From the IMG/VR virus record IMGVR_UViG_3300045931_000157, positions 1-59,828 of that record: a stretch of 59,828 bases of DNA; one strand, given 5' to 3'. The notes under the pieces were generated by a model, which searched no databases, was not told the DNA's origin, and saw only the letters and a list, made by a program, of their open reading frames with translations. This document shows, piece by piece, positions 37,031 through 59,828 of the stretch (position 1 is its first letter; the number at the start of each line of letters is the position of its first letter). This DNA comes from a virus. Its lineage: Duplodnaviria; Caudoviricetes. A program made the position numbers and the translations under genes.

Positions 37031-37526
37031 ACAGCAACTGCGCCAGCTCATCGAGTACGCATCAGGCTTTGCCGAGGGTGTCATGGCCAAGGATGGCTAC
37101 GTCGCTTCGCTCTGGCACTGTGTCAAGGCAGACGGCCAGCAGATCGTCACGCCTCATCCTGCAGGCGACAAGGATTTGGCCAACGCGATGATGCGCGCGT
37201 TTTTTGATCTGCATGACGTGGTTCGCTACGTCTATTTGGGCGAGGCCTGGACACTGCTGCAGCCTGAGAGCGAGCAGGCCGTCAATGACTGGATCGCCAA
37301 ACACGGCAGCCTGAAGGATCACCCGCGCCGCAAGGAGGTGGTGCAGCTCATGGGCGAGGACAGCGAATGCGGTCAGCACATTTGGTGGCGCGAAATCATC
37401 CGGCCCAAAAACCGCAAGCCATATCTTGGGCCGCTCCAGACTTTCCAGGAGCTGCATCCTGGCAAGCCACTTGAATCCAGAGGCCGCATGGTTGGCATGC
37501 TGCCAGTGAGAGGAACGAAGCAATGA
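37023..37526 (+). CDS. Hypothetical protein (167 aa)
   Basis: Likely start MSEQQL; EAW and HPRRKE motifs. Confidence 0.7.
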   Translation: MSEQQLRQLIEYASGFAEGVMAKDGYVASLWHCVKADGQQIVTPHPAGDKDLANAMMRAFFDLHDVVRYVYLGEAWTLLQPESEQAVNDWIAKHGSLKDHPRRKEVVQLMGEDSECGQHIWWREIIRPKNRKPYLGPLQTFQELHPGKPLESRGRMVGMLPVRGTKQ

Positions 37527-38029
37527 TGAAAAACAATGACCGTGCCGCGCTTAAAATGAAGCACTGGCAGCAACATCAAAAGCTGATCAAGTGGCTGACT
37601 GCAGCGCGGCGTCGAGCCGGGCTGCGGCAGGTCGATCTCGGCAAGCAGATGGGCCACAGTCAGGCGTGGATGGCACGCGTCGAGGCTGGCGGTCGCCGCA
37701 TTGATGTCAACGAATTTTTGATGTTGGCACAGTTGCTGCGCTTTGACCCATGCAAGGCTATGCGAAGCATTTCAAGTCTGCTGCTGCTGCTGCTGGCCCT
37801 GTCTGCCAGTTCAGCCCTGGCCCAGGGCCAGGTCACGATCTACAAGCCAGGCGGATCAGTGGCAGGGCGTGCTGTCACAGCACCAGGTGGCGGCACCACG
37901 TTCTACGATGCAGGCGGCAACGTGGCAGGCAAGGCCTCCACCAGCCCCAGCGGCACGACCACGTTCTACGATGCCAGGGGCAACGTGACGGGCCGTGCCG
38001 CTTCTGCGCCCAGCTCTGGACGCAAATAG
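37523..38029 (+). CDS. XRE HTH fused to a hydrophobic segment and TTFYDAxG repeats
   Basis: HTH (RRRAGLRQVDLG...RVEAGGRRIDV.EF), then LLLLLLALSASSALA, then three ~21-aa repeats. Confidence 0.75.
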   Translation: MMKNNDRAALKMKHWQQHQKLIKWLTAARRRAGLRQVDLGKQMGHSQAWMARVEAGGRRIDVNEFLMLAQLLRFDPCKAMRSISSLLLLLLALSASSALAQGQVTIYKPGGSVAGRAVTAPGGGTTFYDAGGNVAGKASTSPSGTTTFYDARGNVTGRAASAPSSGRK

Positions 38030-44715: not shown

Positions 44716-44958
44716 TCACGCCGATTGGCGCTCATGTTCACCAGTGGAGTGGAAGCCGAACAGGCGGATCGGCGCGTAGTAGCCGCGCTTCTCCAGCTCA
44801 GCCTTGAATGTGAAGTAATGCCTGGTCGGAAAGTAACCGTGCTTTCGCCATGCCGTGACGTTGCTCCCATCAAGGCCAACGAGCGCGGCCGCGTTCGTTG
44901 GGCCGCCGAGAGCAAGCAGCACGTCATCGAATGTCCAGAGTGGCATCAGCATTTTCAA
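44716..44958 (-). CDS. Cro-like regulator
   Basis: LGG....AALVG....V..WRK.G.FP; first gene of the leftward early operon. Confidence 0.75.
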   Translation of the reverse strand: MKMLMPLWTFDDVLLALGGPTNAAALVGLDGSNVTAWRKHGYFPTRHYFTFKAELEKRGYYAPIRLFGFHSTGEHERQSA

Positions 44959-45046
44959 AACAGAACTTGATCAATCTATCCTCTGTCAAATGTTCCGCAC
45001 ATTTTTCATGAGCGTGCAGGGTGTGTGCAGGGTCTAAGTTTGGTCA

Positions 45047-45074
45047 CACCAAATTGGTGACACCAAATTGGTGA
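45047..45074. promoter_or_regulatory. Tandem palindromic operator candidate (CACCAAATTGGTGA x2)
   Basis: Exact 14-bp tandem repeat, each a 13-bp palindrome with a central base, between divergent operons. Confidence 0.7.
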
Positions 45075-45149
45075 TCAAAAGAAAGGAAATTAAATCGCGC
45101 TTGAACTTTTTTCTTGACTCTGATCGCTGATAAATTTTTTATGCATCAC

Positions 45150-45283
45150 ACGCTGCGATGTTGAAGTGATTGAGTGCCGCAGCGTCCTACCGAGTGATCG
45201 CAGTCTGGTGCCGTCACTCGATCAAGCTGGCAAGTCTGGTTGCCAGCTGCACGCGACGAAGCTGGCAGGTGCTGGCCGCCAGC
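45150..45283 (+). ncRNA. Structured leader with four hairpins, three with (GU/UG)CUGG loops
   Basis: Stems at 45150-45185, 45191-45220, 45225-45248 and 45261-45283. Confidence 0.65.
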
Positions 45284-45365
45284 GACACAGACGGACCCGA
45301 AGCGAAGTCAACACTGAGCGCGAACGTGCTGCATGCACACTCCTGCATGCGGTGGGGAATTTTTT

Positions 45366-46166
45366 ATGCTCACAGACGAGCAGCTGGAGTTCAAAGTCGG
45401 CAAGGTCAGCGGCTCCATGATGGGGCCGCTGATGAACGCAGTCAGCGAAGCTGCCCTGGTTCGCATGTGGGAAATCGCGGTCGGCCTGCGCGAACCTGAC
45501 CCGCCGAACTGGGCCATGACGGTCGGCTCCCTGATGGAAAAGCCGATGCTGGATCAGCGCGAGAAGGTCACCGGCCAGCTCATCACTCGGCGCGGCGACC
45601 AGGTTGATCACCCCAAGCATCACGGCGTGATGGTGACGCTCGATGGCTACCGCGAAGCCGACGATGCAGTGGTCGAAAACAAATTCCATGGCTGTCATCG
45701 CCCCTACCAGGACGTGATCGCCTGGGCGGCGCCGCAGGCCACGCTGGCTGCACTGTGCACTGGAGCCACCAAGGCCGTGGTGATCACCGGCCAGGGCACC
45801 GCTGACCCAATCGAAACCGAAATCCAGATCACCGATGAATACAGCGGCGTCGTGATTGAACGCGCGCTCTGGATGCTGGACCACATCAGGCGTTTCGTGC
45901 CGCCGTTCCCGCTGCCACCAGCTCCACCGCCACCAGAGAAATGGCGCACCGCCGACATCGTTGCTGAGCCGTGCAACTGGGGCCAGCAGCTCCTGAGCCA
46001 CCTGGAAACCTACGGCAGCCTGGCCGAGGCCGCGCAGCAGTATGAGCTGGCGGGCAAGGCGGCGCGTGAGCTGGTGCCGGATGACGTCGGCACCTGTCTG
46101 GCTGGTGCCTGGCAGCTCAAGCGCAATCGCAAGGGTGTCCTGTCCATCACGAGGAGCCGCCAATGA
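45366..46166 (+). CDS. YqaJ/lambda-exonuclease-like protein
   Basis: SGS, G..ME, TLDG, VENK and Q motifs; adjacent to the ERF gene. Confidence 0.75.
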   Translation: MLTDEQLEFKVGKVSGSMMGPLMNAVSEAALVRMWEIAVGLREPDPPNWAMTVGSLMEKPMLDQREKVTGQLITRRGDQVDHPKHHGVMVTLDGYREADDAVVENKFHGCHRPYQDVIAWAAPQATLAALCTGATKAVVITGQGTADPIETEIQITDEYSGVVIERALWMLDHIRRFVPPFPLPPAPPPPEKWRTADIVAEPCNWGQQLLSHLETYGSLAEAAQQYELAGKAARELVPDDVGTCLAGAWQLKRNRKGVLSITRSRQ

Positions 46167-47023
46167 ACACCGCTGTCGCCAGGCCTGCTGCTGGCTCGCC
46201 TGCTGAGCTGCTGACCATGATCGAGCGTGCTGCTCGCGATCCGCAGGTTGACCTGGAGAAGATGCAGCGCCTGCTCGACATGCACGAAGTCATGGTGAAC
46301 CGCGAAGGCGAGCGCGAAATGAATGCCGCGCTGGTGGCAGCAAGCCAGGACATGCAGCCCATCGTGGCCGATGCCACCAATCCGCAGACCAGGAGCAAGT
46401 ACGCCACCTTCGCCGCGCTGGATCGACAGGCGAAGCCGATCTACACGCAGCACGGCCTGGCGCTCAGCTTCAACACTGAGCCGACCAGCACGCCCGATAC
46501 GATCCGCGTCATCTGCTACCTGCACCACACCTCTGGCTCCACGCGCCGCTATCAGACACCCGACCTGCCGGTCGAAACCACCGGCCTGGCTGGCAAGTCG
46601 ATGATGACGCGCATGCATGCCACCGGCAGTGCCATGACCTACGGCAAGCGTTATCTGCTGTTGCTGATCTTCAACCTGGCTGTCGATGATGATGATGACG
46701 GCAACGCTGCTGGCGGCCGCCGTCATGTGGTCGCGCCGATCAACACTGCAGCTGGCCGCGCCATGAATGAGCCAATCGACCAGGGGCCAGCCGTGGCACC
46801 TGCAGAGCCGCACGCGCTCACCATGGAGCAGGGCAGCACCTGGTCTGATTTTGTTGGGCCGCTCACCCAGCACGTCATGCGCTGCGAATCCGCTGTCGAA
46901 CTCGGTGAGTGGCTGAGGCTGAACGAGGCCATGCTGCTGAAGCTGAAGGAAATGAAGCCAGCTCTGCACAAGGTTTTCGAGGCCAACGTCGAGGCCAAGC
47001 GCAAGGAGTTCAGCGCGAAATGA
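46163..47023 (+). CDS. erf: ERF-family ssDNA annealing protein
   Basis: GSAMTYGKRYLL..IFNL...DDDG signature. Confidence 0.9.
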   Translation: MNTAVARPAAGSPAELLTMIERAARDPQVDLEKMQRLLDMHEVMVNREGEREMNAALVAASQDMQPIVADATNPQTRSKYATFAALDRQAKPIYTQHGLALSFNTEPTSTPDTIRVICYLHHTSGSTRRYQTPDLPVETTGLAGKSMMTRMHATGSAMTYGKRYLLLLIFNLAVDDDDDGNAAGGRRHVVAPINTAAGRAMNEPIDQGPAVAPAEPHALTMEQGSTWSDFVGPLTQHVMRCESAVELGEWLRLNEAMLLKLKEMKPALHKVFEANVEAKRKEFSAK

Positions 47024-47436
47024 TGTGGACGTGCACGCCAACCGGGCTTGCGCCATTCGACCAGGCTGCAGTGGATTTCATGCGCCACTGTGATGGTGAG
47101 CCATTTGAGCTGAAGCACCTGCACAGCCGCGACATGCGCCTGCACAACGGCTGCTTCGGCGTGCTGCACGAACTCAGCAAGGCCCTGGGCACACCGATGG
47201 ACCTGGTGCGCGCTGAGCTGCTGTTCCAGACAGGAAAATTCCAGATGATCGGTGAGCTGTTCGGCCGCTCTGTGATCGCGGTCGATTCCATGTCTCGCAG
47301 CGCGATGAGCGACAAGGAGCTGCGCGCCTGGTGGGCGGAAGCCGAACAGATCATTCGCAAAAGCATGCTGCCACGAATTTCAGATGCCTCTGAGCGGCAA
47401 CGCTTGGAGGAGCTGCTGCTGCTGGTGCCCGCATGA
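47020..47436 (+). CDS. DUF1367/NinB-like recombination accessory protein
   Basis: R.M.LH...F..L and SMS..AM.D patterns; synteny. Confidence 0.55.
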   Translation: MMWTCTPTGLAPFDQAAVDFMRHCDGEPFELKHLHSRDMRLHNGCFGVLHELSKALGTPMDLVRAELLFQTGKFQMIGELFGRSVIAVDSMSRSAMSDKELRAWWAEAEQIIRKSMLPRISDASERQRLEELLLLVPA

Positions 47437-47468
47437 CCCGCATCCCGCGTACATCGCGCGCACCTCAG

Positions 47469-47560
47469 TGGCCAACGGCCCGCCGTTCTCGGTCACAGCT
47501 GGTGCTGCAGCCAGACACTGCAGCACTGGTGCCCACACCGAGGCGGCGGGCTGGCGGCCA
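47469..47560 (+). ncRNA. 92-nt long hairpin RNA with CCAGACA loop and 3' CCA
   Basis: Nested helices across the intergenic gap: 47469-73/47556-60, 47476-86/47543-53, 47488-93/47537-42, 47498-510/47518-30. Confidence 0.7.
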
Positions 47561-47584
47561 ATCATTTCAAACCAGGGAGGACCC

Positions 47585-47782
47585 ATGCGCGCATCCGTCG
47601 AAGTGAGTAGCCGTCAGGAGGCCGAGGCCATCAGGGATGGCCTGGGCGATCCAGTCACGCGCGCCATCGTGGTGTGCATGGGAGCCATCAAAAGTTTGCC
47701 CAGCGAGCGCGCCCGTATGCGCGTTCTGCAATTCCTCCACGACCACTTTGATGAGCAGCAGACAGGAGGGGTGACGAAATGA
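47585..47782 (+). CDS. Hypothetical protein (65 aa)
   Basis: GGAGG RBS; start MRASVEV. Confidence 0.7.
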   Translation: MRASVEVSSRQEAEAIRDGLGDPVTRAIVVCMGAIKSLPSERARMRVLQFLHDHFDEQQTGGVTK

Positions 47783-48174
47783 ACCAGCGCGATGACGAAC
47801 TGACCACTGACATGAAGCGCCTGGCGCGAAGCATCCGCCCCGTTCCCATCACCACCAATGGCGGCGAGGCCACTCCACCTCCTCCACCAGGTCAGCAGCC
47901 GCTGATCGAGCAGAAGGATCATGACCTGCTGCATCGCAGCCTGGATCAGATCGCAAACAACTGGGTGAAGCAGCTGCAGGCAGTGCGCACCAATGCCGAG
48001 CAGATCGAGCAGCTGGTGCTGACGCGAGCTGCCAAGGTCAAGGCCGACATCACGCAGCTTTACCTGCTGGGCACAGCTGCCGTCAGCGAGGCCGAGCGCA
48101 GCGCCAAGGTCTGCAAGACGCTGCAATCCGAACTGGAGCAGCTGGGCGAGGTGCCGGATGTCACAGCATCATGA
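47779..48174 (+). CDS. Hypothetical coiled-coil protein
   Basis: Translationally coupled ORF. Confidence 0.7.
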   Translation: MNQRDDELTTDMKRLARSIRPVPITTNGGEATPPPPPGQQPLIEQKDHDLLHRSLDQIANNWVKQLQAVRTNAEQIEQLVLTRAAKVKADITQLYLLGTAAVSEAERSAKVCKTLQSELEQLGEVPDVTAS

Positions 48175-50543: not shown

Positions 50544-50843
50544 ATGACACAGCCGCTGCGCAAGCCACTGCTCAACGCACAGATCGCCCTGGAGGCCAGG
50601 GCCATCGCGCACCGTTTCACGCGCAGCTGCCTGCGGTTTGATGTGCTGCGCACTACGACGAGCAGTGATGACGATGACCACACCAAGGCCTGCAATGATC
50701 TGAAGCGGCAGATTCAGGACCTGGCCATGGGCGTGAAGCTGGCCACTCTGCAGGGTCATTCGTTCCGGCATTCCAAGGCAATAAAAAAAGGGGCGGGTGA
50801 TGAGGACCCGCCCCCTGTCAGTCTGGAGCCTTTGAATTGTTAG
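50544..50843 (+). CDS. Hypothetical protein
   Basis: AGGAG RBS; 3' end runs through the integrase terminator. Confidence 0.5.
   Translation: MTQPLRKPLLNAQIALEARAIAHRFTRSCLRFDVLRTTTSSDDDDHTKACNDLKRQIQDLAMGVKLATLQGHSFRHSKAIKKGAGDEDPPPVSLEPLNC
50783..50815 (-). terminator. Rho-independent terminator for int
   Basis: A7-GGGGCGGGT...ACCCGCCCC on +, i.e. hairpin plus U run on -. Confidence 0.8.
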
Positions 50844-52084
50844 GCCCTGAGCTGCACCACGTTGGTGGCCTCAGCTCGCGGCAGCAGGCCACGGCGGCTG
50901 ATGTGGTCGCTGTGGTCGGTGATGAAAAATCCGTAGTTGGATTTGATCTTCGCCTCGGAGGTGTCGTGCAGAGCAGCCACCACATAGGCCGGATCGCCAG
51001 CCAGCAGACGGCGGACAATCGAGCTGTGGCGCATGAACATCAGCACACCTTCAGCATCTTCACGCATGCCCAGCTGGTCCAGGGTTTCAATGGCCAGCGG
51101 GCGATAGGCGTTGTACGACCACTCGGTGCCATTGTCGCGGGTCAGCAGCAGGTCGTTGGCCTTCTTGCCTGCCTTCAGCTCCTGGAGCAGCGCGGCGAGC
51201 TCCACCGAGATCGCCACTGCATAACGCTGCTCACCCTTGGCCTGTCTGCTGCTGGGCTTCTTTCCGCCCTTGCAGCTTTTCGGCATCATCAGCTTCGGCT
51301 CGCGCGGATCATTGCGCAGGTCCTTGACCTGCAGGCGCTCCACCTGGCTGGCGCGTGCACCAGTCTCGCCCAGCACCTCACAGAAGACGCCGAACTTTTT
51401 GTTGCGCTCGTAGGCAGCAGCAATGAAGGCCAGCACCTTCTCAGTCGCCACCACAGAGTTGCGGGCCACACTGGTGCCTGCGAATTTCAGATCAGCCCAG
51501 GCGTCCTTGTTCTTGATGCGGCTGTCGTGCTTGGCAGCCAGGTTGCAGGCGCGAACCAGACCGACGACCATGCGGTTGAAGGTCTGCTTGTTCATGCCAG
51601 CGCGGATCAGGCCGTTGCGCCAATCCTTCAGGCCCAGGTTGGTCAGCATCTGCACCTGCGTCTTGAGCAGAGCTGGCGTCAGGTGCTGGCGCGGGTGGCG
51701 CGCGTTGTAGGTGTTGCCACCTTCCACCTCCAGCTCGCCTTCGTAGGTGAGCAGAGCTGCATCAACATCCTGCGGCGCGCCTGCCTGGTCGGCCTTCTCA
51801 TCAGGCTGGCCAAAGGAAGCGCGGGCCAGTTCATAGGCCTTGGCGAAGCTGATGCCTTCCTGACCTGGCACGTCATCAGCTGGCCCCAGGTCCTTGACCC
51901 ATTCCGGCTTGGCGGTGCGATCGTTGGCCAGCCAGGAGCCTTGCCCCAGGTTGCGGCGGTATTTCAGGAAGCGGCCAGGAGCCAGCTTCGCAGCGGTGTA
52001 CATGCCAGCTCTGACGATCAGCTGCAGGCGCTTGCCTGGAAATTCAAAGTCATTCTGGATGCGGCGTTCTCTGGTGGTCGTCAT
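50840..52084 (-). CDS. int: Tyrosine recombinase/integrase
   Basis: ETGARASQ, MRHSSIVR and HDTS...NY catalytic segments. Confidence 0.88.
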   Translation of the reverse strand: MTTTRERRIQNDFEFPGKRLQLIVRAGMYTAAKLAPGRFLKYRRNLGQGSWLANDRTAKPEWVKDLGPADDVPGQEGISFAKAYELARASFGQPDEKADQAGAPQDVDAALLTYEGELEVEGGNTYNARHPRQHLTPALLKTQVQMLTNLGLKDWRNGLIRAGMNKQTFNRMVVGLVRACNLAAKHDSRIKNKDAWADLKFAGTSVARNSVVATEKVLAFIAAAYERNKKFGVFCEVLGETGARASQVERLQVKDLRNDPREPKLMMPKSCKGGKKPSSRQAKGEQRYAVAISVELAALLQELKAGKKANDLLLTRDNGTEWSYNAYRPLAIETLDQLGMREDAEGVLMFMRHSSIVRRLLAGDPAYVVAALHDTSEAKIKSNYGFFITDHSDHISRRGLLPRAEATNVVQLRA

Positions 52085-52097
52085 TTTTGTGGTCCTC

Positions 52098-52319
52098 TCT
52101 GTTCCAATCTGTCCCAATGGTGGGGCTGCCAGGCAGGTGCCTGGCCTGGACCCAATGTAGGCAAATTCTATCGGCAGGACAAGGGGTTAAGCCCTGCACA
52201 GAGGGGGCACAGGCTAGGCACAGAGCTGGTCACTTTTACCCTTGTAGGGCAAAGCGTTAGACGAAATTCGCCAACAATATCAACGAAAAAAAATTCGTCT
52301 GTTCCAAATCCATCCCAAT
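52098..52319. other. Candidate attP / int control region
   Basis: Repeated TCTGTTCCAA..TCCCAAT blocks at 52098-52118 and 52298-52319 flanking an AT-rich core. Confidence 0.45.
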
Positions 52320-53816: not shown

Positions 53817-54025
53817 TGCCGTTCTTCGGTTGGCGTCTAAACCCATACGGCCCAGCAACCTGCTGGAAGGCTGAGCATCGGCCCTTCAACACCACACCGC
53901 TGACCAGTGGCGAGTTTGATCCGCCGCACACGCAAATCAGAACGATCACCGATGAGGAGCTGAACAGCCCGCTGAGCGTACTGGCTGCACGCTATCCCTA
54001 CGTTCCGCCGCTGGAGAAAGCCTAA
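53816..54025 (+). CDS. Hypothetical protein (69 aa)
   Basis: TGATG coupling; start MPFFGW. Confidence 0.6.
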   Translation: MPFFGWRLNPYGPATCWKAEHRPFNTTPLTSGEFDPPHTQIRTITDEELNSPLSVLAARYPYVPPLEKA

Positions 54026-54078
54026 AGCGGCCCGCCGCTGCTTTCGGGTTTGCCTTTGGGGGGCACGGCGGGCCGCTT
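54025..54078. terminator. Strong hairpin between convergent operons
   Basis: AAGCGGCCCGCCG / CGGCGGGCCGCTT 13-bp inverted repeat. Confidence 0.6.
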
Positions 54079-54117
54079 CGAGTTGGTACGCGGGTTGTCA
54101 ACGCTCCAACTCGGCGA

Positions 54118-54699
54118 TCACACCTTCACCCATGGGGGTGAAATCTGTCTGCCTGACAGCGCACCTCCAGGTGGTGCGGTGGCGCGCTTCGCTTTCGAGT
54201 GCCAACGCTTCACTCTGGCGTCGATCGACACGAGCTTGGCGCGGACATCATCGCCGGGCTCGGCGACTTTCTCCGGGCGCTTCAGCTTGCCTTCCAGCCA
54301 TCCATTCGAGACGACGTGGTTGATAAGCTGCCGCTCGATCCAAGCGTGGCGTGGACCGTGCGCTTCGCCGTAGAGCCGACGTGCTGCCAGATGCGAGATC
54401 GAATGCACGATCTCGTGCCAGCCGCCGCCGTTTCGGACGTAGGGTTTGCCGCCCATCAGCTTGACGCTTTTGAGCAGGCCACCGCCTTCGTCCGGGTTCA
54501 CAAGCAACACGCCGTACCGAATCCAAGTTCGTTTCCGGCCTGTCACTAGCTTCGTCGGACCTCGCCACGACTTCCCCATCGCGACGCGATAGAGACGCTT
54601 GGCACCGGCCAGAGCTTCTTGCGACGTTGGCTTCAGATCGCGACCCTCGCGAGTCCCGTCCGGCCACGCGCCGTTCACCGACTGATACTTTTCGGGCAT
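54118..54699 (-). CDS. Hypothetical basic protein with HExxH/HxxxH motifs
   Basis: GGAG RBS; WHEIVHSISH...H...H; start MPEKYQ. Confidence 0.7.
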   Translation of the reverse strand: MPEKYQSVNGAWPDGTREGRDLKPTSQEALAGAKRLYRVAMGKSWRGPTKLVTGRKRTWIRYGVLLVNPDEGGGLLKSVKLMGGKPYVRNGGGWHEIVHSISHLAARRLYGEAHGPRHAWIERQLINHVVSNGWLEGKLKRPEKVAEPGDDVRAKLVSIDARVKRWHSKAKRATAPPGGALSGRQISPPWVKV

Positions 54700-55079
54700 C
54701 AGAGTTCTCCATTGGTTTGACGATTTCAAACAGCCCGCTGACCGAGTTGCAGATCGATCAACGTGAGAGGATTCTATCACGTCACGGAGTCGCGCTTCGA
54801 AAACGCATCGATTCCAAAAATTTTGCCGCTGACAAAAAAAGTGAATTCGGAATTTTTTGGAAATGCCAACTTCGGAATGAAGGGCTTTTCGAGATGCAAC
54901 CCGACGCGGTTTTGCGGAATCGACCCGCGTCGTTAGCGGGTCAAAGGTGCGACACTGCGTACACTTTTCGCTCTTGGTTGTGTTCGAGCCGCGCCGAATT
55001 GTTCAACGCGCGCGGTCGCGATTATCGCGCTAAGTCGTTGATGAAATAATTTTCGAGCGGTCAGAAAACCGGCGCGCGT

Positions 55080-58936: not shown

Positions 58937-59828
58937 GATTGCCTCCCTGTCAACTGCGTCGGCGCCGCACGCTTGCCGATCATGGTCAGCTCTGCAGCTT
59001 CACCCTCAAGCTCGTCTGGTGTCTCGCGCTTGCCAGTGAACTCCAGCTCTGCAGCCTGGCCGATGAAATCGAACACCACACGCTGGCCGATGCCGTCGAT
59101 GATTTGGATGCGGCCGCCAGTGAAGCGGCAATAGTCTGCTGCTTCAGTTGCGACCAGGTAGCCGTTATTGATCAGCGAAGTGGAGAACAGCGGAACGTCG
59201 CGTTCCTCTGTCGCGTGCAGCTCACCATCCAGGCCGACCAGGCCAATGAACTCAGAGCCATCGGCCAGCTCAGTGGCCGCCATGCTGCCGGACCAGCCGG
59301 TGGTAGCGACCAGTTCAGCGGTGTCTGCAGCTTCACTGGCAGCCAGCGTGCCGACCCAGTGCACGCCGATATTGAAGGCTGCACTGTCAGCTGCTTCGCT
59401 CGCAGCCAGCACAGCAACCCAGCGCACCAGGCCTGAACTGCTGCAGGTGTCCGCAGGTTCAGTGGCAGCCAGGCTGGCAACCCAGCGCACTGTGCCAGTG
59501 AGTGCAGCTGCATCACGAGCTTCGCTGGCGGCCATGGTGCCGAGCCAGCGCACCAGGACATTGACTGCAGCAGTGTCTGCAGCATCGCTGGCCACCAGGG
59601 CACCAGCGATGCCGGTGACCTGGCCGTTAAGGCTTGCACCATCACCAGTTTCGACAGCCACCAGGCTGCCGATCAGGTCGATGCCCCAGCTGACCGTGCC
59701 AGTGAGCGCGGCACTGTCGCTGGCTTCAGAGACAGCCAGGCTGCCGAACCACTCAACCCGCGCGTCGAAGCTGGCCGTGTCGGCGGCTTCGCTGGCCCCC
59801 AGGGACGTGAGCCAGCGCACCAGGCATG
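58933..59828 (-). CDS. 3' part of the ~855-aa 21-aa-repeat protein (starts at 1801)
   Basis: Same repeat (W..SLAASEAADTA.F.G.V); in-frame continuation through the terminal overlap. Confidence 0.88.
   Translation of the reverse strand, partial: CLVRWLTSLGASEAADTASFDARVEWFGSLAVSEASDSAALTGTVSWGIDLIGSLVAVETGDGASLNGQVTGIAGALVASDAADTAAVNVLVRWLGTMAASEARDAAALTGTVRWVASLAATEPADTCSSSGLVRWVAVLAASEAADSAAFNIGVHWVGTLAASEAADTAELVATTGWSGSMAATELADGSEFIGLVGLDGELHATEERDVPLFSTSLINNGYLVATEAADYCRFTGGRIQIIDGIGQRVVFDFIGQAAELEFTGKRETPDELEGEAAELTMIGKRAAPTQLTGRQS
59700..59828. repeat. Terminal direct repeat, right copy
   Basis: Matches 1-129 with one mismatch. Confidence 0.95.

Follow-up and report, generated by a model that had tools for sequence, protein, structure and literature searches.

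What does a 92-nucleotide (nt) hairpin do in the rightward early operon of a soil virus, and is it connected through its apical loop with the hairpins in the leader of the same operon? The window analyzed here is the whole of IMG/VR record IMGVR_UViG_3300045931_000157, a soil virus sequence of 59,828 nt that is classed as linear and 81% complete, and the whole stretch is present in five soil metagenome runs, which may be its source. Minus-strand genes extend up to 44952, and a plus-strand operon starts at 45366 and encodes, in this order, a RecE/YqaJ-like exonuclease (phrog_434), an ERF annealing protein (PF04404) and a 138-amino-acid protein, here called p3 (47020-47436). The hairpin (47469-47560, plus strand) lies in the 148-nt gap (47437-47584) directly after p3, and had been noted in a preliminary description made from the letters of the DNA alone. 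That description had also reported three leader hairpins with the loops GTCTGG (45203-08), GTCTGG (45234-39) and TGCTGG (45270-75), and an exact complement between GUCUGG and the apical loop CCAGACA of the 92-nt hairpin, from which it proposed an RNA control system resembling the immunity RNAs of phages P4 and P1. The hairpin, its loop, the complement and all three leader loops are present as described.

The 92-nt hairpin belongs to a conserved RNA family

The predicted fold of the hairpin has the following parts, in which hairpin B denotes the family defined below.

47469-47560, plus strand: the 92-nt hairpin, an enlarged member of the hairpin-B family, with an outer stem of 47469-73 paired with 47556-60
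47476-87 with 47542-53, plus strand: basal 12-bp stem
47489-47541, plus strand: extra apical arm of 53 nt, including a 13-bp stem (47498-510 with 47518-30)
47511-17, plus strand: apical loop CCAGACA; unpaired GCCCAC at 47531-36, below the 13-bp stem; the helix ends in GGCCA

The gap folds at -76.4 kcal/mol, compared with -57.7 ± 4.1 for shuffled sequences (z -4.57; 0 of 200 as good), so that the hairpin is far more stable than shuffles, and it is the most stable 100-nt segment in the 5.5 kb scanned (z -4.9).

Relatives were retrieved with an alignment of the exonuclease (A1) from three collections, and 5 loci were obtained from genomes (Bradyrhizobium and alphaproteobacterial metagenome-assembled genomes), 16 from IMG/VR and 27 from metagenomes; individual loci are given L numbers below. 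The identity of their exonucleases to that of the window is at most 50% in all cases. Single-protein locus searches retrieved no relatives, exact loop-plus-stem patterns gave 0 matches in viral contigs, and the only nucleotide-level relative in the phage collection was a 207-nt match to the ERF gene. The gene order exonuclease, ERF gene, p3, gap and next gene is conserved in the relatives, with p3 detected by tblastn in 31 of 49 sources. A word-based search of 5.8 billion proteins returned only the window's own p3; it is not an orphan, however, since tblastn found homologues in 30 related loci.

In 20 of the 28 loci with enough sequence, as counted from the listing of the stem finder, the p3 stop is followed by a hairpin of the form GGCYCGYCG...CGGCGRGCC, which we call hairpin B. 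It consists of an outer 3-bp helix, a purine-rich 3x3 internal loop of the GAA/GAA type, a stem of 12-14 bp and a C-rich loop of 15-25 nt with a GCCCCC-type core. When 14 relatives were aligned and the window was excluded, 96.1% of the cells were paired and 7 of the 15 pairs had changed on both sides; 0 of 500 shuffles reached the observed values, and slid controls paired at 25-52%. We then searched the 59.8 kb of the window on both strands with a covariance model (R1) built from these 14 relatives, with the window left out. The top match was 47465-47566 on the plus strand (27.4 bits, E 6.3e-6), and it aligned to the whole length of the model, its loop enlarged by a 44-nt insertion. The same model detected a hairpin-B copy in L013 and L014.

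The match lies in the gap directly after p3, which is the position of hairpin B in the relatives. The stem of the window (CGGCCCGCCGUU/GGCGGCGGGCUG) and its outer UGGCC/GGCCA pairing match the family, the one departure being an internal loop of the 2x2 type (AA/GC) where the family has GAA/GAA. Instead of the C-rich apical loop the window has the 53-nt arm, in which only GCCCAC resembles the core and which bears the complementary CCAGACA loop; apical insertions are also found in L012, L035 and L063. Read on the other strand, the G-U pairs of the hairpin-B stems would turn into A-C mismatches. Given that they are workable only on the plus strand, the structure belongs to the plus-strand transcript. 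No Rfam family was found at these places in the window or in the 14 relatives. These results show that the 92-nt hairpin is a real and conserved structure of the plus-strand RNA, that it belongs to a new family with no Rfam counterpart, and that hairpin B marks the same gene boundary in the relatives. The preliminary description had looked to covariation in related phages for support, and the outcome is divided: the hairpin-B stems covary, but the GUCUGG and CCAGACA loops are conserved in no relative found.

Hairpin B gave one match in each of three Bradyrhizobium genomes; at the level of the genus, 6 of 151 genomes have a match, and among 151 sampled genomes of the class there are 2, the centre genome included. 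It is thus rare, single-copy and, where the context was checked, phage-linked. The module also occurs in other gene contexts (L060, L062 and L063), and some loci have tandem copies. We therefore have a covariation-supported RNA structure, new to Rfam, at a fixed boundary in the early operon of soil alphaproteobacterial temperate phages and prophages, including those of Bradyrhizobium. It offers a testable handle on the post-transcriptional control of phage recombination genes in a little-known group.

Many relatives have another hairpin, called hairpin A, across the stop codon of p3 (11 loci were folded), and it should be melted by the translation of p3. In the non-Bradyrhizobium lineages the stop codon itself is in the small loop. 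Because MAFFT and RNAalifold misaligned the stems of the leader hairpins and of hairpin A (4 and 8 consensus pairs), single-sequence folds were used for both. At this place the window has only a small hairpin, which may be homologous to hairpin A to judge from its position.

47446-47460, plus strand: small hairpin after the p3 stop, CGCGU-ACAUC-GCGCG, where the relatives have hairpin A

A possible role in cis at the gene boundary

The conserved structure raises the question of how it acts. The reading that we favor, and which we hold with slightly less than even confidence, is that the 92-nt hairpin is a cis-acting element for processing, stability or pausing, and that kissing with the leader is not required. 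It would work within the polycistronic mRNA of the early (recombination) operon, most likely as a processing site or as a 3' decay barrier that separates the recombination segment from the later genes, and it would be recognized through the conserved internal loop and the apical loop. A role as a pause or termination point seems less likely. The leader hairpins would then be a separate conserved feature, and the GUCUGG/CCAGAC match would be due to chance or to a lineage-specific addition.

Specific recognition is suggested by the loops of the family. A 15-nt loop core, UGCGCCCCAGCCYUG, is common to six Bradyrhizobium-type loci, and a seventh (L003) has C for the first U; together with the internal loop of the GAA/GAA type, this shared core argues that hairpin B is recognized by a specific partner. 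As possible targets of the C-rich loop we considered complements of 8-11 nt, which are present in each locus; they lie at non-homologous places and were rejected.

The window contains a second, similar hairpin on the other strand.

54018-54083, minus strand: hairpin with stem GGCCCGCCG/CGGCGGGCC and a C-rich loop; R1 score 19.6 bits, E 0.0013; no 3x3 internal loop

This hairpin is found approximately 35 nt after a minus-strand open reading frame (ORF; 54118-54780), between convergent genes, and it resembles a 3'-end element. The position of a similar hairpin just after an ORF is as expected if hairpin B is an element of this kind.

Such elements have precedents. In the puf operon of Rhodobacter, intercistronic stem-loops confer segmental mRNA stability, and RNase III sites occur between early genes of phages. 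Like these, hairpin B is a large G+C-rich hairpin without a U-tract that lies between cistrons, at a conserved gene boundary. Unlike them, it is known from sequence, its loop and internal loop are conserved, and its stems covary across phages.

Several points weigh against a role in cis. Nothing in the read data points to a 3' end, to cleavage or to a stable RNA species at the hairpin. No intrinsic terminator was called at 47469-47560, where the hairpin is followed by AAUCAUUUCAAACC and not by a U-tract, so that it is not a canonical terminator. A conserved complement of the C-rich loop was not found within the 10-kb loci, and a plain decay barrier would need no conserved loop sequence. Finally, this reading leaves unexplained the exact and accessible loop complement of the window, together with analogous pairs in two other lineages.

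Leader hairpins and their complements in the gap

We also considered the possibility that the complementary loops pair with each other. The features that bear on this are as follows.

45150-45185, plus strand: hp0, the first leader hairpin, with an 8-bp stem (ACGCUGCG/CGCAGCGU) and a 20-nt loop; part of the minimum free energy (MFE) fold of the leader; -12.6 kcal/mol folded alone
45192-45219, plus strand: hp1, loop GUCUGG at 45203-08; -12.4 kcal/mol folded alone
45225-45248, plus strand: hp2, a perfect 9-bp stem (AGCTGGCAA/TTGCCAGCT) with loop GUCUGG at 45234-39; -14.6 kcal/mol alone
45261-45283, plus strand: hp3, which shares the arm AGCUGGCA with hp2; loop region GGUGCUGGCC, UGCUGG at 45270-75; -15.6 kcal/mol alone
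45327-45357, plus strand: hairpin whose 3' arm holds the exonuclease Shine-Dalgarno sequence GGUGGGG, followed by AAUUUUUU and the AUG at 45366; -15.3 kcal/mol
45367-45382, plus strand: small hairpin just after the AUG, loop ACAGAC, in which CAGAC is a 5-nt complement to the leader loops; -6.4 kcal/mol
46089-46109, plus strand: 6-bp hairpin inside the exonuclease gene, loop UGUCUGGCU, a 7-nt complement to CCAGACA
45164-45318, strand not assigned: stretch covered by one 155-nt contig of metatranscriptome run X10, with 0 differences and a depth of 3.8

The stability of the 221-nt leader as a whole is unremarkable (z -1.57; 13 of 200 shuffles as good). hp0 is probably at its 5' end. hp1 forms only when it is folded alone and is missing from the global MFE fold, and the TGCTGG of hp3 is partly paired, with a complement to the distal loop of only 4 nt. 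hp2 has its loop at -132 from the exonuclease AUG and predicted to be unpaired (Pu 0.99), and it is the positional counterpart of a hairpin that the relatives have approximately 130 nt before the same AUG. The stems of hp1 and hp2 differ, whereas the loop is kept, which indicates an RNA-level structure on the plus strand. The Shine-Dalgarno hairpin fits a simple terminator-like pattern (45327-45354; 11 pairs and a T-run), and from its sequence it could be a transcription attenuator or a mask of the ribosome-binding site; to the eye, the relatives also have hairpins containing the Shine-Dalgarno sequence, but without the U-run. The 5-nt match of the hairpin after the AUG is weak and is expected by chance. 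The hairpin at 46089-46109 encodes a conserved PDDVG..LAG motif and is hence under coding constraint. Its 3' arm with the next base (46103-46110) reads GCTGGTGC, and the same 8-mer occurs at 47498-47505 in the apical arm of the 92-nt hairpin.

One rival to the cis-acting reading is that the tandem GUCUGG loops functionally bind the CCAGACA loop, either on the same RNA molecule or in trans. In this way the 5' leader would be tied to the boundary after p3 and, possibly, to the start region of the exonuclease gene. The likely regulator would be the leader array, since C4 and CI are leader RNAs too, with the 92-nt hairpin as its target or decoy, and the pairing code would differ from lineage to lineage. 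We regard this as possible but doubtful. The match is exact over 6 nt, or 7 with a G-U pair, and folding predicts almost no pairing within either loop (Pu 0.99 and 1.0). In an accessibility-weighted search of 16 leaders against 16 gaps, the pair of the window scored -8.0 kcal/mol and was the best of both its row and its column; 5.7% of 194 mismatched pairs from different lineages nevertheless scored as well. The two motifs are common on the plus strand of the window, where GTCTGG occurs 21 times and CCAGAC 25 times; GTCTGG is clustered in 45203-46101 (3 copies where 0.32 are expected; Poisson P 0.004). Among the hairpins of the window with loops of at least 6 nt, a 6-nt loop-loop complement is found in 0.07-0.32% of the pairs. 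Within 3 kb on the plus strand there are 17 such pairs out of 3,624 for stems of at least 6 bp and 2 out of 382 for stems of at least 7 bp, the leader/92-nt-hairpin pair being one of these two. With this background rate, a blind scan of the window would find some complementary hairpins by chance. For the targeted comparison, in which three leader hairpins are set against one given loop, the chance is about 0.2-1%.

Next, we looked at the leaders of the relatives, which have a hairpin with a lineage-specific loop at the place given above. Six Bradyrhizobium-type loci present (G)GAUACGG(G)AC as the loop, on stems that differ in sequence, and in L035, L029 and L012 the loop is UUGGACCC, UUGGACGC or UUCGGACG; L026 and L033 have tandem arrays of short hairpins. 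The best accessible leader-gap pair of the locus was AUACGGG/CCCGUAU in L003, AUACGG/CCGUAU in L006, GAUACGG/CCGUAUC in L007 and UGGACC/GGUCCA in L035, with leader loops at -138, -127, -132 and -126 from the AUG, respectively. With the window counted, the unbiased search picked such leader-gap pairs as the best in 5 of 16 loci, each time with a leader site that fell 126-138 nt before the AUG.

In the Bradyrhizobium lineage, the leader loop GAUACGG faces a hairpin-A loop that reads CCGUAUC in L007, UCGUAUC in L004 and L005, CUGUAUC in L059 and CCGUAUU in L003. These versions differ by C-to-U substitutions, which leave G-U pairs with the leader loop in place. The exception is L006, where CCGUAUG breaks one end of the pairing. 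In a third lineage, UGGACC/GGUCCA of L035 corresponds to CGGACG/CGUCCG of L012, which gives two compensatory double changes around a GGAC/GUCC core. Across the lineages, the complement occupies three different structural positions, being found in the hairpin-A loop, in the internal loop of a hairpin-B insertion or at the apex of such an insertion. However, no such pair was found in five lineage groups (L002; L015; L016; L017; L026/L033) or in the Bradyrhizobium-type L010. A Fisher combination over eight lineages gave a marginal p of 0.055, or 0.10 with a correction within lineages, and a looser loop-matching test, in which hairpins were defined liberally, could not tell matched loci from mismatched ones. 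RNAduplex runs on entire leaders were of no use because they permitted huge internal loops. In addition, the pairs outside the window (L012/L035 and Bradyrhizobium) were recognized post hoc, six base pairs are weak unless extended, and the absence of the window's loops from every relative found leaves its exact pair without covariation. Taken together, a functional complementarity between leader and hairpin in the window is suggestive on these comparisons.

The read data bear on the same question. Within 44900-47900, the 155-nt contig is the only exact piece in one soil metatranscriptome run (X10), and it spans the three leader hairpins but not the 92-nt hairpin, which agrees with a role of the leader. 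It is made of few reads and has neither strand nor ends, and it may be carry-over of DNA. No RNA contig in run X10 covers the 92-nt hairpin, which proves nothing about its absence from the RNA; the other piece in this run is a 44-nt partial match with 8 other letters. The DNA runs X6-X8 contain no loop variant and are not informative on the absence of variants. Runs X7-X9 contain small shares of the stretch, and the pieces compared from X7 and X8 are short partial matches. Taken at face value, the contig suggests that the leader and not the 92-nt hairpin is the better candidate if a stable regulatory RNA exists.

In some relatives the leader motif also complements the exonuclease start region, as observed in the Bradyrhizobium and L029 lineages. 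Of two helices between the leader and the translation initiation region (TIR), GGGACGCC x GGCGUCCC was matched by 3.4% of controls and GACGCGCACC x GGUGCGCGUC by 1.2%. In L003-L007 and L059, the leader loop GGAUACGGGAC complements (GU)CCCGUAUG just before the exonuclease AUG, and in L006 there are matching one-base deletions on both sides of the leader-TIR complement. Judged from these sequences, L003-L007 and L059 would form a long-range helix between leader and TIR by which the leader is closed off in its entirety. In the window, the analogous match is only the CAGAC of the small hairpin after the AUG; the best leader-TIR helix there (UCCUACCG x CGGUGGGG) is at the level of chance, matched by 30% of controls, and was rejected.

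Extending the kissing reading, we tentatively speculate, while regarding this, too, as possible but doubtful, that each lineage has a private RNA-RNA address in which the leader loop pairs with a sequence grafted on the conserved intercistronic hairpin 2 kb downstream, with the leader array as a stable regulatory RNA; in some lineages the start region of the first gene would also be paired. If this speculation is true, then the control of the early operon, and perhaps its immunity specificity, would be encoded in RNA in a double-stranded DNA (dsDNA) temperate phage through kissing loops in the kilobase range.

Kissing loops are known from the long-range 5'-3' contacts of plant viruses and from the antisense RNAs of ColE1 and R1. 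The present loops resemble them in that complements of 5-7 nt connect the loops of stable hairpins that are kilobases apart or on separate RNAs. They differ in that the plant viruses are RNA viruses and the ColE1 and R1 RNAs are fully complementary cis-antisense pairs. We know of no kissing contact in the kilobase range described inside the early mRNA of a dsDNA phage.

On the cis-acting reading, the lineage-specific leader loop would be read either by a phage protein, in a nut-like manner, or by RNA. The nut sites of lambda (boxA and boxB) and the put RNAs of HK022 are in early-operon leaders. Similar to these, the present loci have short leader hairpins with a lineage-specific loop after the early promoter, and in the relatives a CGCUGAA-like sequence is seen by eye before them. 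In contrast, the loop of the window is a 6-nt GUCUGG and not a GNRA-like pentaloop, and nut sites have no complementary partner downstream. By eye, the 5' sequence CACACGCTG of the window (45142-45160) is identical in L010, and L003-L007 have CGCTGAA just before the leader hairpin; these sequences may be boxA-like or initial-transcribed elements. No N-like antiterminator was found among 10 + 36 ORFs scanned with PHROGs and 10 + 20 scanned with Pfam, many small ORFs being without any match. By analogy, a nut-like reading of the leader hairpins is possible. In L032-L034 a tandem repeat has the core CGAAAAG, for one copy of which, in L033, RNAfold gives a 4-bp hairpin with the loop GAAAA that is reminiscent of lambda boxB, and the repeat unit in the leaders of L026 and L028 contains CGAAAC.

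Remaining readings and the genomic context

A further explanation is that GCA(N)GTCTGG is a motif of the DNA, bound by a protein or used in recombination, with three direct copies in the leader and one inverted copy in the hairpin; whenever a hairpin is copied in inverted orientation, the two loops are complementary as a matter of course. By eye, the apical arm (AGCTGG-TGCTGCAG-CCAGACA-CTGCAGCA-CTGGT) is similar to hp2 written as its reverse complement (AGCTGG-CAA-CCAGAC-TTG-CCAGCT); hp2 is a perfect DNA palindrome; and the clustering of GTCTGG (3 in 900 nt, 0.32 expected) would also fit, as would the approximately six CAGACA-type repeats that L013-L015 have upstream of their promoter. However, arms that differ while pairing is kept, with only the loop conserved, are the signature of a folded single strand and not of a duplex site, the G-U pairs of the hairpin family are strand-specific, and the operator-like repeats of the window have a different sequence (CACCAAATTGGTG). 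We consider this explanation improbable.

The operator-like repeats in question are located between the divergent operons.

45036-45075, strand not assigned: a pair of CACCAAATTGGTG palindromes that overlap each other, upstream of the rightward promoter region, in the operator-like context of a divergent switch; a putative function only

At the same place the relatives have their own, different direct repeats, namely GCGACATCTC in L002, CTGCACATTCC in L017 and the CAGACA type in L013-L015. Such lineage-private repeats between divergent operons look like immunity-specific operators in their sequence and position. The rightward promoter is placed by eye only, since a consensus promoter scan of 44800-47900 found no promoter-like site.

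The model of the preliminary description itself was that the 92-nt hairpin is cut by RNase P at its GCCA end to give a trans-acting immunity RNA that represses its own operon. The C4 RNA of P1 and P7 and the CI RNA of P4 are processed by RNase P to a discrete RNA of approximately 77-80 nt with a CCA-type 3' end, and in both cases the regulator is in the operon leader, with target sites nearby that include the ribosome-binding site of the first controlled gene. The likeness to these systems is that a structured phage RNA within an operon has short single-stranded loops complementary to the same transcript, with several copies of the partner. A real and conserved hairpin, complementary loops, a GGCCA end, the CCCAC facing GUGGG at the Shine-Dalgarno sequence, and the lack of a repressor gene between the divergent promoters (in Pfam and PHROG scans of the ORFs there) can all be cited for the model.

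Several observations weigh against it. Rfam gave 0 matches at the gathering score in the whole window, C4 included; at E<=10 there were five chance-level matches in 44900-47700, all to families other than C4 and all outside the leader and the hairpin, and C4 was not matched in the 14 relatives either. The hairpin of the window does end in GGCCA, but most relatives have GCCG after the stem, and GCCA is shared only by L002 and L017. Both CCCAC and GTGGG (45352-56, within the exonuclease Shine-Dalgarno region) are present as reported, but their 5-nt match is at chance level, as is the best leader-TIR helix of the window. No promoter-like site precedes the hairpin in the region scanned and no terminator-like site is found at it. 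That no RNA contig covers it is a weak argument, since this proves nothing about absence. In contrast to C4 and CI, the hairpin belongs to a different, new structural family and is 2.1 kb downstream of the leader, after three genes, and it has a single complement of 6-7 nt where they have two longer ones. Membership in the P4 CI or P1 C4 group is therefore not supported by the Rfam searches, the unconserved GCCA end and the placement. If anything, the leader hairpin array would by its position be the closer analogue, and if the lineage-specific complementarity is real, its layout differs from those of P1 C4 and P4 CI.

The missing cI gene had also been taken as a sign of RNA control. There is indeed none between the divergent promoters, but an XRE-type helix-turn-helix protein (XRE/HTH_31) is encoded elsewhere, at 37523-38029 on the plus strand, in a small plus-strand island. 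It is a candidate repressor by its domain, and thus an RNA repressor is not needed to explain the absence of cI at the switch. We consider the RNase P-processed immunity RNA very improbable.

The gap also contains an ORF.

47433-47606, plus strand: arginine-rich ORF of 57 codons, with a start overlapping the p3 stop (ATGA) and a frame that spans the hairpin

That this ORF encodes a small basic protein and that the hairpin is incidental is scarcely credible: the ATGA overlap is of the kind seen in translational coupling, the product would be arginine-rich and Bradyrhizobium-type loci have a GTGA overlap at the same place, but the GC content by codon position is flat (0.66/0.69/0.64, compared with about 0.65/0.45/0.76 in neighboring genes), there is no Pfam or PHROG match, the frame, length and sequence are not conserved in the relatives, substitutions follow base pairing, and the ORF overlaps the Shine-Dalgarno sequence and start of the next gene. 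The ORF is probably non-coding on these grounds. A read-through or frameshift product across the gap was considered separately and rejected, as the frames differ between relatives.

Concerning the rest of the genome, Pfam and PHROG scans identified a small protein, an endonuclease-like protein, an HNH-helicase and a primase in the leftward operon. A weak tyrosine-integrase-like ORF is found at 50840-52117 on the minus strand, opposite to the early operon. Positions 1-126 of the window are an exact repeat of 59700-59825, inside a minus-strand gene built of repeats of approximately 60 nt, and the record may thus be circularly closed, or the repeat collapsed, although it is classed as linear.

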